64,000 nucleotides of DNA. Source: Promethearchaeota archaeon. Lineage in GTDB: Archaea > Asgardarchaeota > Lokiarchaeia > Sigyniarchaeales > SOKP01. Location: the NCBI GenBank assembly GCA_029838195.1, contig JALGVJ010000001.1, positions 96,001 through 160,000 on the forward strand, given 5' to 3'. The notes beneath the pieces were generated by a model, which was not told the origin of the DNA, did not search any database, and saw only the letters and a list, made by a program, of their open reading frames with translations. Below, in pieces: positions 57 to 10,234 of the stretch (the first letter of the stretch is position 1; every line of letters starts with the position of its first letter). Both the position numbers and the translations under genes were made by a program.

Positions 57-1565
57 TCATGTTCCGGGAAGATTAAGGGAATCTTTCGATTGATCTAACC
101 CTTCTGCTATTTGATAATCTTCCATCGTTCGCTTGCTCACCATCTTAGTGTATTCTTTAATCTTCTTTTCAAGTTCGGGAGATAAACCGGGCCCTTTCTG
201 GGTTTGGAGGATCTCGTTGACTTTCAAGCGAGCTCTTTCCATCATCGTGGTACCACCTTGTCTTAACCATGCCCCCCTTCTCTGCCGATCTGCCAATTGC
301 GGCACGAATAATTCCTTTCTCGTATTTTTTGCGGTATGCCTCAAGCTTAAATAATTCTTCCCGCTTAAAGCAATTTCCTTGATCTGTTCAATGGCTAAAG
401 CCTCTTCATCCATGCGAATTCCTTCTAACCCCCGCATGACGATGCTTATCAGCTCATCATCTATAACCAGCAATTCAAACGCTTCCGAAAGAGAACTCTC
501 GTAGGTACCCGCGCATGTTATGTAATTGATTCCCGCTTGAGAAGAAAAAAATAGTGTCATGAGTCTCTCATGGCCATTCTGAATATCGAAGCATTTGGAT
601 TCCGTCACGCAGCCCGGACCCCGTGAAGGAATGCCATAAAAACGGGCTAATTGTGCCATTCCTGCCGTAATTAACCCTGTTTCAACTGAACCCCACGCCA
701 CATTTCCCGTAACAGGATCCATGGGCGCACTCATGGTAGAATAAAGAATTGGAGTACCAGAATTGATGAGTTGAGCAAGTACCACGGAGGAAAGAATTTC
801 CATGTTGGATTGGATTAACACACCTGCTAAAGTCACGGGGGCTGTAGCTCCCGCACTTGCCGCAGGCGCAATTATGAGTGGTTGATTGTATTTAGCAAAA
901 ATGAATAATCCGTTTAACATTATTCGAGTAAGATGAAGCGGACTTGTCGGATTGAAAAAACCTATCAAGCGTGGACGTTTTCTGAGTTCATCCTCTCCTC
1001 CTACAATCATGGATGTTAAATTCATCATGTCTTGACTGGCAACTCGTCCATAACATCCAAGACCGTAAGGCTTATGCGAATGTTTAGCCCATACTCTAAT
1101 GGCGTGGCAATGTAATTGCAAATAGGGGACATCATTCGGCCACACGTCAACATGACTCGCTATAATATTTTTTAAACTATCTACTATTCGAATTTGGTTA
1201 ATAGTATCTTCTAACACGCTCTTACGTACCCCTTTTTTCTTCGAAAGATCATGCATTTTAACCGGCGTGCCGACCGTGGCATGATGGATGGAATTCGTAT
1301 CAATTTTTACTTGAAAAGAACCATCGGGCCCGTATAAGGTAAAAGCATTTGGAACTTTTTTTAACTGCTCTTCCACCAAAGTTCGGGGAAATTTAATAAA
1401 AATGCTGTTTTCCCTTGTATCGGGAAGAGCTCCGTTATTAATTAATAGTTCACGAGCTTCTTCGGATTCTACTTTTACTCCCACTTCTTCTAATAAATTT
1501 AAAGTAGAGTCATGGATTACTCTTATTTCTTGTTCCGAAAGTACTTCCATTTTTTTCATCTTCAA
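57..1565 (-). CDS. Trimethylamine methyltransferase (MttB) superfamily protein, non-pyrrolysine
   Basis: 502 aa with MttB-type N-terminus (LSEQEIRVIHDSTLNLLEEVGVKV), GATAPVTLAG, GTPILY and ESKCFDIQNGHE. No in-frame TAG; Val at the Pyl-equivalent position. Confidence 0.9.
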   Translation of the reverse strand: MKMKKMEVLSEQEIRVIHDSTLNLLEEVGVKVESEEARELLINNGALPDTRENSIFIKFPRTLVEEQLKKVPNAFTLYGPDGSFQVKIDTNSIHHATVGTPVKMHDLSKKKGVRKSVLEDTINQIRIVDSLKNIIASHVDVWPNDVPYLQLHCHAIRVWAKHSHKPYGLGCYGRVASQDMMNLTSMIVGGEDELRKRPRLIGFFNPTSPLHLTRIMLNGLFIFAKYNQPLIIAPAASAGATAPVTLAGVLIQSNMEILSSVVLAQLINSGTPILYSTMSAPMDPVTGNVAWGSVETGLITAGMAQLARFYGIPSRGPGCVTESKCFDIQNGHERLMTLFFSSQAGINYITCAGTYESSLSEAFELLVIDDELISIVMRGLEGIRMDEEALAIEQIKEIALSGKNYLSLRHTAKNTRKELFVPQLADRQRRGAWLRQGGTTMMERARLKVNEILQTQKGPGLSPELEKKIKEYTKMVSKRTMEDYQIAEGLDQSKDSLNLPGT

Positions 1566-1757
1566 GAATTTTTCACCAACATGTTCGTGTTAAAAAGAGT
1601 AATTGCTCATTATCCTTGATAATATTACATGCTTCTTAAATGCTAAAAATTCCGTTTTATGTTTTCCCGAATTATTTTGAAAAAGTTTTTTTGTCAATGG
1701 AATTTAAGTGATATTAAAAATTTAATTGCTTAAAAATTGATACACGAGTTAAAAAAA

Positions 1758-2408
1758 ATGAGTCTGGAAGAAGATATTAAAACTTCTATCTTAGAATTTG
1801 ATGAAGATGGATTAAAAAAAAGGATTGAAACTGCTCTCTCCACGAAAGAAGCAGATCCGCTAACCATTCTCAAGATTATCGGGAATGTTATGACTTTAGT
1901 AGGAGATAAATTTGAAAAGGAAGAATATTTCTTGCCCGAATTAATCATGAGCGCCAATATCGTGAAATCTGCTATTGATGAAATATTGGATCCCGCTCTG
2001 AGGAACACAGGACAGAAAAAAGAATCTTTGGGCAAGGTCGTTATCGGAACCGTAGAAGGCGACGTTCATTCAATAGGAAAAGACCTCATTGCTTCTTTCT
2101 TGTTTTCCAATGGATTCGAAGTGTACAATCTGGGAGAAGAAGTGCCCGCTGAAAAATTTATTAATAAAGCAGAGGAAGTAAATGCCCATATCATTGGTCT
2201 AAGCTCCTTGCTCACGATGTCCATGGATTTCCAAAGGCAGGTCATCCAAGAATTAAAAAAGCGAGAGCTCCGAGATAAATATAAAGTAATTGTCGGTGGC
2301 AGTCCTACTTCGGAAGAATGGGCGGAGCAAATTGGCGCCGATGGATGGGCGGATGATGCTCTTGAGACCGTGGCCCTTGTTAAAAAATTATTAAATATAA
2401 ATGAATAA
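1758..2408 (+). CDS. Methyltransferase corrinoid protein (MttC/MtbC-like B12-binding)
   Basis: B12 cap domain (YFLPELIMSA), DxHxxG motif (GDVHSIGK), GLSSLLT and IGADG. The ORF is open from 1737; ATG 1758 is the likelier start. Confidence 0.92.
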   Translation: MSLEEDIKTSILEFDEDGLKKRIETALSTKEADPLTILKIIGNVMTLVGDKFEKEEYFLPELIMSANIVKSAIDEILDPALRNTGQKKESLGKVVIGTVEGDVHSIGKDLIASFLFSNGFEVYNLGEEVPAEKFINKAEEVNAHIIGLSSLLTMSMDFQRQVIQELKKRELRDKYKVIVGGSPTSEEWAEQIGADGWADDALETVALVKKLLNINE

Positions 2409-4661: not shown

Positions 4662-5171
4662 ATGGGAGACCCAAGGAGATTAAAAAAAAAATACAAAAAA
4701 CCGAGACATCCTTTTGAAAAATCAAGAATCTTAGAAGAGCTTGAATTTTTAGGGAAATATGGATTGAGAAACAAACGCGAGTTTTGGAAAATGCGCTCGA
4801 TCTTGAGCAATTGGAGAAACATCGCACGACAGTCGAGGGCTCTGCCTAAAGAAAGAGCTATCGAAGTGCAGCAGACTTTATTAAGAAAACTTAATCGTTT
4901 AGGAATTATTGGGCCGGAAGCAGAATTTGAAGATGTCCTACTGTTGACTGTCGAAGATGTCTTAAAGAGGCGCTTACAAACGCTAGTGTATGAAAAAGGT
5001 TTAGCCAAGACTATCAATCACGCTCGTCAATTAATAGTTCACGGGCATATTCAAGTAGGAAATAAAAAAATAACCTCTCCCTCTTATTTAGTAAAATTAG
5101 AGGAAGATGATTTGATCACGTATGCGCCAAACAGTCCCTTAGCAGGGAAAAAAGTGGAAGAAGCGACATGA
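4662..5171 (+). CDS. rps4: 30S ribosomal protein uS4
   Basis: MGDP..KKKYKKPRHP, YGLRNKRE, RRLQTLV, ARQLIVHGHI. GGTGA SD-like motif at 4652. Confidence 0.97.
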   Translation: MGDPRRLKKKYKKPRHPFEKSRILEELEFLGKYGLRNKREFWKMRSILSNWRNIARQSRALPKERAIEVQQTLLRKLNRLGIIGPEAEFEDVLLLTVEDVLKRRLQTLVYEKGLAKTINHARQLIVHGHIQVGNKKITSPSYLVKLEEDDLITYAPNSPLAGKKVEEAT

Positions 5172-5184
5172 AAATTAGTAATTA

Positions 5185-5613
5185 ATGAAAAAACAATGGA
5201 GTAATATTAAAATGAGTGAAAAAACCACAAAGAATAGATGGGCTATTGTTCATATCTTTTCTTCTTATAATAATACAATTGTTACCGCAACTGACCTTTC
5301 GGGACAAGAAACCTTTTCAAAATGCTCCGGTGGCATGGTCGTTAAAGCAGATAGAGATGAGAGCAATCCTTATGCTGCCATGCAATGCGGCTTTCGTGTT
5401 GCGAATGACTTATTGGACAAAGGCATTGGAGCTGTTCACATAAAAGTCAGGGCTCCTGGAGGGAATAAATCCCAAACACCTGGACCGGGAGCTCAAGCTT
5501 GCATTCGTGCATTAGCACGAGCTGGACTTCATATTGGACGGATTGAAGAGGTAACACCCAAGTCTCATGATCATTGTCGTAGAAAAGGAGGACATCGAGG
5601 CAGGCGAGTATGA
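5185..5613 (+). CDS. rps11: 30S ribosomal protein uS11
   Basis: [43 protein letters not shown] and GRRV C-terminus. The start may be ATG 5212. Confidence 0.97.
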
Positions 5614-5893
5614 TTTATTTTTTAAAAATTTTTTATACCTCCTTTAAAATTCAATATTTTTGGAAGCGTTTCTTTTCACTGTAGTTGAAATTTTCGGGCT
5701 TGCAAGCATTCAGTTCGGAAGAAGAGAAATTATTTAGAAATAATTTTTCTTTAGAAATGCTACCAAGTAGAAGTTCATCTTAATCTTGTTAATGAATGGA
5801 AAATTTTATTAATTATTTTAGCAAAATTTACATGTTACGCTTTAATATTTTTTAATTCTATTATTTTGGTAAAATTTGGAGTATTATTTCCTT

Positions 5894-7301: not shown

Positions 7302-9362
7302 ATGAGTGAGAAATTGAAATTTAACTCTTTATTACAAGAGATTAAAGAAATTTACCTTTTGCTGACGGAAGGAGAACCTTCCCCTGATGATGAAATTGAA
7401 GCTCGGGAAAATTTTATTCGGTTCTTTAAAAATTTAAAACTGGTCACTTCCGATCCTAAACTTGAGATTTTAATTGATGAGTGTTTGGATAAACTAGAAA
7501 AATGGGACGTATTAGAATTATGGTTTGTTGAGGTGCCGGGTTTAAAAAAGTTAATTAAGCAAATTTTAGATCAAGCGGGCATTGAATTACCTGCTCAACA
7601 AGAACTCATTACCCCTACCCAAGAAAAGGTCGAATTTGAACCTATTAAAAAGGAGCGGGACGTGGACGTCGAGGAGGTTGTAGAAAAAATCACGGAACAA
7701 TTTACGTCTCAAATCAATGATTTAAAAAAAGAAATTGAACGGCTCCAACAAGAGCTAAAAAAAGGAGAAACACCCTCAGAGTCAATAAGAAGAGAATTAA
7801 AAGAGGAATTAAAAGAATTAAAAATAATGAAAAAAAGGGGAGAATCCCCCCCTATAAAAAAACCAAAATTATCTCCTCCTGAGATTAAATTACCTAGATT
7901 AAAAATTACGAAAACACCTCCTAAAATAGCTAGCGAAAAAGGAGAATCAGAAGATCTATTTTCTAAAAGATTAAAAAAAATACAAGATATTGCAGCTCCC
8001 TTTAAATTAGCCGTTTCGAAGGAGAAAAAAGGATCTCAAGAAGATATTCCAGCAGCCGAGGAAGAAAGTCAAAATTTACAACAAATCGATATGAGTTCGG
8101 AGAAGGAACAAGTGTTTCTGAAAGAGGATTCTGAAATTCAAGAACCAATAGAAAAAATGGTTCCTTCTCCTTCTCCTGCTTCTGAGGAAGTTGAAGATGC
8201 ACCTGAGGAAATAAATCCAGAAATATTAAAAACTCCGGAAAATATTAATACTAAAACCCAAGATTTATTAAATCTGGAAGAAACACTAAAGAAATTAGAA
8301 GAGTTAGAAAATTTAGATACTCTTGAATCAGAGAAAGAAGTTGGAGTTCCCGAGGCGGCACCAATAAATGAATTAGTTCAAAAATCTTCGGAAGATTTTC
8401 CTACTCTAGAGCTCAATGAGATTGAGGCTAAGGAAATACCAAGTATCTTGCCAGAACCCTCTCTCATTCCACCCCCTCCTCCAAAAACCGTTTCTCCTCC
8501 AGAAGAATTATCACCCGTGCCCCAAACTCCGTTTAAAGAAATAGAACATGAAGAAGATTTATCCCCAATTCCTAAAAAACCTCAAAAGGCAGCAATAAAC
8601 GTGGAGACTCCTCCAAGCAGAAAAATGCCAAAAATTTCGTTTGAAATTAAAGAAGAACCAATAGAGAGTAAACCATCAGAATCAACTCCATTTGTTGAGC
8701 CACGTTTTCCTAAAGAAAAAAAAATTCCTATCGTACCTGAAGTTATTGAAGAATCAATAGAAGCTTTCCAACCGGAAAAACCTCCTTTTATTCCAGAAAC
8801 AGAGACTGAAATCAAAACCGAAGAACCCGTGAAAAAAGAAGAACCATTAAGCCAACCATTTAATTTAATCGAATTAGGGAAGAAATTAGAATCAAAAACA
8901 GCTGAAAGTTCTAATTCTATTAAAACTACTAAGATTGATTTATTTGAAGCTTTTACATCGGTCGGAAAAAAACAAGTGAAAAAGAGCGAGAAAGGCACCG
9001 AATTTTTTAACCTTTCAAGGCAAAAGAAATTAGTCAAAGAAGAATCTAAAAGCGAACAAATTTCTCCTCCCCCTTTTTTTAAAGGTATTGGTGCGATCAA
9101 AAAAGAATCTCTTGAAGTTGATATAATTCCCATTAATATCGATGAGCTTCCCCGTGATAAAGATAAGTTATATCAAGAATTAATCGTTCATGAAGGCAAG
9201 AGATATAAACTCGAAAAGCTTTACAAAGAAGTGGAAGATAAACATGAAAGAGGAATGATAGATGATTTAGAATTTAAAAATGAGATCGGTCAATTGAAAA
9301 AGAAACTCAATCTTATTACCGAAATCATCAATGGAATAAGACAAGTTATATCAACATTATAA
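7302..9362 (+). CDS. Hypothetical protein: helical N-domain, coiled coil, long Pro/Glu-rich disordered region and C-terminal steadiness-box/SHOCT-like hairpin
   Basis: 686-aa ORF with clear compositional segmentation; C-terminal LYQEL..LE..RGMID..F pattern. Confidence 0.8.
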   Translation: MSEKLKFNSLLQEIKEIYLLLTEGEPSPDDEIEARENFIRFFKNLKLVTSDPKLEILIDECLDKLEKWDVLELWFVEVPGLKKLIKQILDQAGIELPAQQELITPTQEKVEFEPIKKERDVDVEEVVEKITEQFTSQINDLKKEIERLQQELKKGETPSESIRRELKEELKELKIMKKRGESPPIKKPKLSPPEIKLPRLKITKTPPKIASEKGESEDLFSKRLKKIQDIAAPFKLAVSKEKKGSQEDIPAAEEESQNLQQIDMSSEKEQVFLKEDSEIQEPIEKMVPSPSPASEEVEDAPEEINPEILKTPENINTKTQDLLNLEETLKKLEELENLDTLESEKEVGVPEAAPINELVQKSSEDFPTLELNEIEAKEIPSILPEPSLIPPPPPKTVSPPEELSPVPQTPFKEIEHEEDLSPIPKKPQKAAINVETPPSRKMPKISFEIKEEPIESKPSESTPFVEPRFPKEKKIPIVPEVIEESIEAFQPEKPPFIPETETEIKTEEPVKKEEPLSQPFNLIELGKKLESKTAESSNSIKTTKIDLFEAFTSVGKKQVKKSEKGTEFFNLSRQKKLVKEESKSEQISPPPFFKGIGAIKKESLEVDIIPINIDELPRDKDKLYQELIVHEGKRYKLEKLYKEVEDKHERGMIDDLEFKNEIGQLKKKLNLITEIINGIRQVISTL

Positions 9363-9466: not shown

Positions 9467-10234
9467 ATGCGGAAATTAAATTATGTAAAATTAATAGACG
9501 ATATTGCAAATTGGATAAGAGGGTATGTATTATCAGCAAATTGTCAAGGAATCGTCGTTGGAATTAGTGGCGGAATAGATTCCGCCGTAACATCTGCTCT
9601 TTCGGTTAAAGCTTTGGGAAATAAAAAAGTACTGGGAGTTGGATTACCTTGTGAATCAAATCCTCAAGACCTAGAAGATTCTAAATTAGTCGCTAATCAT
9701 CTTAAAATTCCATATCATGTTATAGATTTAACTCAAACTTATCAAAAATTTTTAGAAAGCTTTCCCGATGAAATTAAAAAAGAGCCCATGGCATTAGCAA
9801 ATATCAAACCACGCTTGAGAATGACTACCTTATACTATTTGGCTCAATCGCTCGGCTATTTGGTGGGAGGAACGGGAAATAAAACGGAATTATTGATTGG
9901 GTATTTTACTAAATATGGAGATGGAGGGGTGGATATAGAACCCATAGGAGATTTATATAAATGTGAAGTACGAGAAGTAGCAAGAATTTTAAACATCCCG
10001 GAAAAGATAATTACTAAACCACCCTCTGCTGGTTTATGGAAAGGTCAAACAGATGAGGGTGAAATAGGAATTACTTATGATGAATTAGATGAAATATTAT
10101 ATAAAATAGAACATGGATTCGATTTAGACGATCTTAATCAAGCAAACGTGGAAAAAGTAAAATTGCTGATGAAAAATTCTCAACATAAAAGAAATCTTCC
10201 TCCTACATTTAAAATAAAAATTGAATCTGGCTAA
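9467..10234 (+). CDS. nadE: NH3-dependent NAD+ synthetase
   Basis: SGGIDSA PP-loop, NIKPRLRM, GYFTKYGDGG, KPPSAGLWKGQTDE. Confidence 0.96.
   Translation: MRKLNYVKLIDDIANWIRGYVLSANCQGIVVGISGGIDSAVTSALSVKALGNKKVLGVGLPCESNPQDLEDSKLVANHLKIPYHVIDLTQTYQKFLESFPDEIKKEPMALANIKPRLRMTTLYYLAQSLGYLVGGTGNKTELLIGYFTKYGDGGVDIEPIGDLYKCEVREVARILNIPEKIITKPPSAGLWKGQTDEGEIGITYDELDEILYKIEHGFDLDDLNQANVEKVKLLMKNSQHKRNLPPTFKIKIESG

Follow-up and report, generated by a model that had tools for sequence, protein, structure and literature searches.

A lineage-specific Asgard protein family with a steadiness-box-type C-terminal hairpin and a plausible but unproven role in ESCRT-I

The stretch of DNA analysed here (hereafter the window: 64,000 nucleotides, positions 96,001 to 160,000 of contig JALGVJ010000001.1, assembly GCA_029838195.1, Promethearchaeota archaeon) carries on its forward strand an open reading frame (ORF) at 7302..9362 that starts with ATG and encodes a protein of 686 amino acids (aa), P0001, a member of a conserved Asgard family. 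A preliminary description had divided this protein into a helical N-domain, a coiled coil, a Pro/Glu-rich stretch and a terminal hairpin, a layout borne out by the ORF call, AlphaFold2 (AF2) models and composition. It had also read the hairpin as resembling the steadiness box (SB) of human TSG101, and the protein as a headpiece-type subunit of the endosomal sorting complex ESCRT-I. Profile comparisons lead us to place the hairpin in the SB/CdvA-type hairpin superfamily (sensu Makarova et al. 2024). An ESCRT-I role for P0001 is plausible but unproven and is here the minority reading; a flexible Asgard adaptor or scaffold that uses the hairpin as a docking module appears somewhat probable.

The protein begins with a four-helix bundle (aa 1-95; 7302..7586), defined by alignments and by AF2 modelling of the family alignment (H3-23, H28-48, H52-67 and H81-91; predicted local distance difference test, pLDDT, about 90), with invariant residues P26, P28, D29, E31, I32, W68, D69, W74, F75 and E77. 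It was correctly called a non-UEV domain (UEV, ubiquitin E2 variant): AF2 predicts a four-helix bundle, and no member of the family matches UEV or UQ_con. The N-domain falls in no Pfam family, structure searches return only generic bundles, among them ties with b562/BRIL-type bundles, a protein atlas search gave no usable match, and neither a zinc ribbon nor a PH domain was detected in the N-terminal region of P0001. An "inverted Vps28", in which the N-domain would correspond to Vps28-C, was considered and rejected (hhalign 1.3%; no VPS28 Pfam match among the families listed); in the Foldseek comparison, the Vps28-C structure 2J9W stood at E about 1 among generic bundles.

Coiled-coil-like helices follow at aa 123-177 (7668..7832; conserved VSEQFKGEIDxLKxxIExLKxEL), modelled by AF2 from the family alignment at 123-153 and 160-177 and matching in Pfam, below cut-off, generic coiled-coil families only. 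The linker (aa 180-611; 7839..9134) consists of 17.6% Glu, 13.4% Lys, 13.2% Pro and 9.3% Ser and, on this composition, is presumably disordered. It contains two conserved motifs (about aa 182-200 and 527-555) that were absent from the preliminary description. The first is a basic/Pro motif (aa 182-200; 7845..7901; consensus KITPKKxVKLPPPKIKIPVIKKP; invariant L190, P192, I195 and P198). The second, recognised in the alignment, is an acidic run with DLFxxFSSVG (aa 527-555; 8880..8966; invariant L547 and G555) that keeps a fixed spacing of about 133-149 residues to the C-terminus in the core family. The last 75 residues (aa 612-686; 9135..9359) form a confidently predicted hairpin (H9-38, turn, H44-74; pLDDT 93.7 in AF2), assigned to the SB type by AF2 and hhalign, with invariant residues K620, L623, Y624, Q625, E626, L627, I628, E631, G632, R634, Y635, E638 and G651. 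The earlier placement of its start at nucleotide 9168 is correct, since this corresponds to residue 623, the L of LYQELIV.

A word-indexed search recovered 44 homologues of P0001, and an exhaustive search with the hairpin profile recovered 169 cluster representatives; all homologues with names derive from Asgard metagenome-assembled genomes (Promethearchaeota, Lokiarchaeia, Hodarchaeota, Sigynarchaeota). The two terminal domains are conserved together: in 115 proteins the N-domain stands at the N-terminal end and the hairpin finishes <=6 residues from the C-terminus. Across these proteins the linker spans 72-598 residues (median 295, about 430 in P0001), and five conserved blocks are recognised: the N-bundle, the coiled coil, the basic/Pro motif, the acidic/DLFxxFSSVG motif and the hairpin. 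When 200 sampled Asgard genomes were surveyed with the N-domain as probe, within the window's GTDB family 36 of the 40 genomes proved to have it as a single copy, as did 3/3 of its order; distant relatives occur in 3/21 and 1/1 genomes of two other families, and none was found in the 135 genomes of the remaining 23 families. A compact member of 264 aa (genome G025) lies between a zinc-ribbon/coiled-coil protein and a ParA/MinD-type ATPase (L096:3805-4434 (-), 4969-5760 (+)).

The assignment of the hairpin is carried by profile-profile comparison (hhalign) with a reference set of 26 Asgard SB hairpins, taken from genomes with Vps23_core around or above cut-off; their source proteins are of the UEV-coiled-coil-SB type, about 250 aa long. 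A broad profile built from 63 hairpins of all classes matched Asgard SB at 95.2% (P 2.5e-8, score 42.6) over 64 ungapped columns. The controls were clean: reversed profiles reached about 6% (score 17.7-18.0), 100 column shuffles scored 18.1 or less, and the family's own coiled coil and N-domain gave 0.7% (score 12.3) and 0.4% (score 11.8), respectively. The broad profile also matched Asgard Vps28-N at 84.7% (score 31.9; reversed 15-16, 2-3%), where the positive control, Vps23-SB against Vps28-N, gave 96.2% (score 48.7). The proposal of a specifically steadiness-box-like hairpin therefore stands, at 95% against Asgard Vps23 SB.

The pairwise alignment with human TSG101, on which that proposal had originally rested, is by itself a weaker argument. 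The steadiness box given in the preliminary description matches the 6VME_B sequence, and all nine identities named (positions 1, 2, 16, 28, 29, 31, 32, 36 and 43) are exact. The ungapped BLOSUM62 score of 23 beats shuffles, only 5 of 20,000 reaching it, but among the roughly 600,000 windows in the ORFs of the same genome 32 attain it, and the match is not significant genome-wide. The best-scoring TSG101-like window in that scan (score 50) lies in the lid of an AAA+ ATPase, a chance match. The register itself was reproduced by chained alignments from the hairpin to Asgard SB and on to TSG101. Authentic Asgard SBs match TSG101 at only 23 bits (E 6.6e-4), which accounts for the weakness of direct searches with the hairpin. 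Likewise, a direct hidden Markov model (HMM) search of the window's genome with the authentic SB profile gave no match and, with filters off, returned only proteins on contigs C22 and C40 and not P0001; direct HMM searches are thus too insensitive to link the P0001 hairpin with SB.

One rival, that P0001 is a low-complexity protein ending in a generic amphipathic hairpin unrelated to SB, could appeal to the frequency of the TSG101 score in the genome, to fold searches that do not discriminate and to the lack of a Pfam match above cut-off. The profile-profile score lies far over the reversed, shuffled and own-coiled-coil controls, the register agrees in three independent alignments, and the hairpin profile matches only three places in its own genome, one of which is a Vps23_core-like protein on C22. 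We regard this explanation as already disfavoured and very improbable.

More specific hairpin types were weighed through their Pfam and structural neighbours. Taken member by member, and always below cut-off, the matches of the core family are mostly to generic helical families: FlgN (40/43), GvpG (38), CdvA PF18822 (30) and APG6_N (27). Authentic Asgard SBs share this weak background of APG6_N, CdvA, GvpG and SHOCT. The same neighbours are listed in published work, and Makarova et al. 2024 (PMC10936438) take a PF18822 match as evidence for "CdvA coiled-coil or SB". Because the CdvA coiled coil and the SB are held to be homologous in published work, a CdvA-like match is no argument against SB. 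A profile search of the PDB returned YabA (E 0.02) and yeast Vps28-N (E 0.06-0.12), and in Foldseek, ESCRT-I headpiece chains and CdvA are frequent among the top matches (E 0.4-2). The VIA-align ties at Z 9-10 include SMC, Snf7/CHMP4B, designed hairpins and seryl-tRNA synthetase. Structure-only searches do not discriminate the hairpin type.

The preliminary description had named a generic SHOCT hairpin as its alternative, and between SHOCT and SB the profiles favour SB for the core family. In comparisons that for SHOCT and for eukaryotic Vps37 were made by Pfam hmmscan alone, P0001 has no SHOCT match and SHOCT lies outside the 25 Pfam families most matched by the core family. Sub-cut-off SHOCT matches occur in 18 of 63 hairpins, at 17-23 bits against the 27 required; they cover some 20 residues at the turn and are confined to the giant-protein class.

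That class belongs to a wider set of proteins that end in the same hairpin. Giant Asgard proteins of 850-4,301 aa without any Pfam domain (P0158, P0161, P0164, P0166-P0168, P0170, P0172-P0175, P0177, P0178, P0183 and P0186) have a single transmembrane segment, located about 300 residues from the C-terminus, together with a tail rich in Pro, Ala and Lys and a terminal hairpin of the form ENLYQQLVLLEQKRYKAERSLRDL..GxITDEEY..LRRKLISF; several also have an N-terminal signal or transmembrane segment. The basic/Pro motif was considered as a sign of a common partner and rejected in this role, being present in some of the giant proteins only. The hairpin directly ends a small-GTPase-like protein with the motif LVGTKLDL (P0071, 417 aa) and a Lys-rich, zinc-ribbon-like protein (P0111, 420 aa). 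In the window's own genome, the second-best match of the hairpin profile is a 481-aa protein on contig C72 (L049:1492-2937 (-)), in which an N-terminal globular domain and an acidic/Pro linker precede the C-terminal hairpin KKFESGKLDENSY. On contig C40 (15364-17235 (+)), an SB-like hairpin (LEIRYKKGKLPSKTAYEKL) ends the cytoplasmic tail of an OST1/ribophorin-I-like membrane protein. The homologous OST1 cytoplasmic domain of MK-D1, whose structure is solved (8WHN), is the top VIA match of the P0001 hairpin and binds ribosomes (PMC11417166).

The occurrence of the hairpin on giant proteins, a GTPase-like fusion and OST1 marks it as a docking tail of general use, whose presence alone does not imply an ESCRT function. 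On the same grounds, the SB may be suggested to serve as a general plug-in docking module in Asgard cells. A further rival would make the P0001 hairpin a general SHOCT/CdvA-type tail for self-association or docking, found in many unrelated contexts, with P0001 functioning outside ESCRT, for example in the envelope, the cytoskeleton or in association with ribosomes. The giant membrane proteins, the GTPase-like fusion, the zinc-ribbon protein and the ribosome-binding OST1 all speak for such a tail, as do the sub-cut-off SHOCT matches and the presence of CdvA, whose hairpin polymerises, among the best sequence and fold matches. The ribosomal S13-S4-S11 cluster lies nearby here and in one relative, and ESCRT context is lacking; the ribosomal synteny is missing in another relative. 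The SHOCT match is restricted to the turn, never reaches 27 bits and stays outside the core family's top 25, whereas the SB match spans 64 columns at 95%, and the CdvA-like match is compatible with SB through their published homology. We therefore treat a general tail of this kind as a tentative possibility.

The genes around P0001 are S13, S4 and S11, an enolase-superfamily gene, a NAD synthase, two small ORFs and an N6-methyltransferase, and this neighbourhood is conserved in relatives. The preliminary description had placed the gene outside an ESCRT operon, which agrees with its ribosomal, NAD synthase and methyltransferase neighbours. The NAD synthase (9467-10234) is on the same strand as the ORF in the window and on the opposite strand in two relatives (L006, L008) whose gene order is otherwise the same, which points to a local inversion.

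The ESCRT genes of the window's genome lie elsewhere. Vps22, Vps25, Vps4 and Snf7 are on contig C87, and a second Snf7 (138579-139052) is on C22, 1.3 kb from a PH-type SB protein (C22:140365-142407 (-); L001, L050). This protein has about 570-680 aa, is PH/GRAM/GLUE-like in its middle part and probably belongs to the published Znr_CC_PH_SB family. Its tail scores 26.0 bits on Vps23_core (cut-off 26.8), the best value in a six-frame search of the genome, and it is the top match there of both the authentic Vps23-SB and Vps28-N profiles; it is also the C22 protein among the three places matched by the hairpin profile. No canonical Vps28 was detected in this genome; the only Vps28-like protein there has 597 aa, with winged-helix repeats and a Vps28-C-like end (L004, C54:55317-58589), and a Mod_r search gave only E 0.07 or worse, at other loci. 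Two adjacent UEV/E2-variant-like ORFs are found on C4 (L051:426-1394 and 1552-1989 (+)), encoding a tandem UEV-like protein (322 aa) and a protein of 145 aa with a C-terminal Cys-rich finger; neither has an SB. Most genomes of the window's GTDB family have a Vps28 of about 215 aa. Vps23_core matches 5 of its 40 genomes, all below cut-off and all in PH-type proteins, and a canonical UEV-Vps23 was undetected in these 40 genomes.

These inventories bear on a second rival, in which P0001 would be a core ESCRT-I subunit, a partner of Vps28 resembling Vps37 or Vps23 that forms the headpiece by joining its SB hairpin to Vps28-N. The hairpin is SB-homologous by hhalign, and the family is near-universal and single-copy in a lineage where UEV-Vps23 is undetected, most genomes have Vps28 and, in the window's own genome, the UEV-like ORFs lack an SB. 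The combination of a UEV-less helical N-terminus, a coiled coil and an SB recalls Vps37, reportedly lacking in Asgard archaea, and in G025 the compact 264-aa member shares a contig with UEV-Vps23 and Vps28. In that genome, the ESCRT-I genes lie 13 kb downstream of the family member, with metabolic genes in the interval, and the family's gene never stands beside an ESCRT gene. In ESCRT-I, stalk and headpiece are continuous; here 72-598 presumably disordered residues lie between the coiled coil and the hairpin. The N-domain shows no relationship to UEV or Vps28-C, neither Mod_r nor Vps23_core matches P0001 at E up to 10, and the genome that encodes P0001 has no detectable Vps28-N. A core subunit is therefore unlikely.

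For the earlier ESCRT-I claim, this means that the SB-type hairpin holds and the headpiece role does not follow, as only the hairpin is shared with Vps23 and the coiled coil is detached from it. The claim of a headpiece subunit as such finds no ESCRT neighbour, no Vps28-N detected in the same genome and a hairpin that also sits on non-ESCRT proteins. By its domain content, P0001 is not a Vps23 orthologue.

We instead propose, as the somewhat probable reading, that P0001 represents a conserved, undescribed and lineage-specific Asgard family of flexible adaptors or scaffolds with an SB-type hairpin as docking module. The hairpin would pack against one or two hairpins of the same type and so dock the protein into a small helical bundle, while further partners would be recruited through the N-bundle and the linker motifs. 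As docking partners, other SB-bearing proteins of the cell may be the likeliest, among them the PH-type SB protein linked to ESCRT or, in genomes that have it, Vps28. The protein would then assist an ESCRT-I-like assembly or offer another way into it.

Several observations weigh against this adaptor reading. A narrow hairpin profile of 43 sequences matched Asgard SB at 82% (score 31.3) with reversed controls at 35-52% (score 23.7-25.8), so that helical and charged composition contributes to the match. No Pfam model scores above cut-off on the hairpin and P0001 has no match at E up to 10; of the 43 members, just 4 match Vps23_core (best E 0.009); in VIA-align, the ties at Z 9-10 extend to hundreds of unrelated hairpins; and the similarity of a short charged hairpin may have arisen by convergence. 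Neither in the window nor in the relatives examined does the gene adjoin an ESCRT gene. A Vps28-N or a freestanding SB was undetected in the window's genome by tblastn, family HMM and profiles, although its absence is unproven because the assembly is 96.6% complete. Six family-positive genomes, 93-100% complete, likewise have no Vps28 match at E 1e-5. Finally, the cytoplasmic domain of Asgard OST1, which binds ribosomes and not ESCRT, terminates in an SB-like hairpin as well.

The origin of eukaryotic ESCRT-I is an open question, with Asgard archaea reportedly having Vps23 and Vps28 and no Vps37. A near-universal, single-copy SB-type protein in a lineage without a detectable UEV-Vps23 is therefore a candidate pairing for Vps28 or for the PH-type SB protein. 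In its boldest form, which we consider decidedly unlikely, the family would supply Lokiarchaeial Asgard archaea with the "missing" third subunit of the ESCRT-I headpiece, Vps37-like and UEV-less, pairing with Vps28 and/or the PH-type SB protein, and the giant single-pass surface proteins and the small GTPase would plug directly into the same headpiece by their SB-type tails. If true, this would provide a ubiquitin-independent route into archaeal ESCRT sorting. A plug-in SB, if true, would in itself widen the view of what ESCRT-I-like assemblies recruit. Should the hairpin merely self-associate, a new conserved Asgard family and a mobile C-terminal domain are still defined.

Among known systems, SHOCT (PF09851; Eberhardt et al. 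2013, PMC3581485) resembles the P0001 hairpin in its C-terminal position, its many domain partners and its G-x-I-(T/S)-x-x-E-(F/Y) turn. It differs in that its 28-position model covers the turn only, whereas the P0001 helices are about 30 residues each. The CdvA coiled coil (PF18822; 9S9G, 9S9I) is likewise a helical hairpin, with a fold match at a root-mean-square deviation of 1.1-1.9 Å and PF18822 matched below cut-off by 30 of 43 members. P0001 lacks the PRC barrel and ESCRT-III-binding tail of CdvA, and the ESCRT set of its organism is eukaryote-like rather than Cdv.

In eukaryotic ESCRT-I, the third subunit of the headpiece is Vps37 (PF07200 Mod_r). Like P0001, it has no UEV, is helical at its N-terminus, contains a coiled coil and ends in an SB-type hairpin, and it is reported as lacking in Asgard archaea (Hatano et al. 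2022). P0001 has no Mod_r match at E up to 10, and its coiled coil is not contiguous with the hairpin. With the SB of Vps23/TSG101 (PF09454; 6VME, 2F66, 2P22) and of Asgard UEV-Vps23, P0001 shares an antiparallel hairpin of two helices, C-terminal and about 65 residues long, with the turn (R/K)G-x-I-D/S-x-x-x-(F/Y). The UEV that is present in Asgard Vps23 proteins is lacking in P0001, and alignment between them is limited to the hairpin. The P0001 coiled coil (aa 123-177) is not continuous with the hairpin as the ESCRT-I stalk and headpiece are with each other, and Vps23_core finds no match above gathering score in P0001, its best match in the same genome being the C22 protein.

There is also a likeness to the Asgard multidomain SB proteins (Znr_CC_PH_SB, cog.011556; BAR-SB), which likewise join a variable N-terminal module to a terminal SB hairpin and are known from Asgard only. 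Diverse proteins of this kind are described by Makarova et al. 2024 (PMC10936438), with the SB proposed there to dock onto ESCRT-I SB motifs. Znr_CC_PH_SB is encoded in or near the ESCRT cluster, whereas the P0001 family gene is never in or beside one. The P0001 family also differs in combining a four-helix bundle, a coiled coil and a very long linker with two conserved motifs, an architecture not found described in the text and tables of that work. Because such multidomain SB proteins are already on record, we place the family among them, where it looks like an addition with an architecture of its own.

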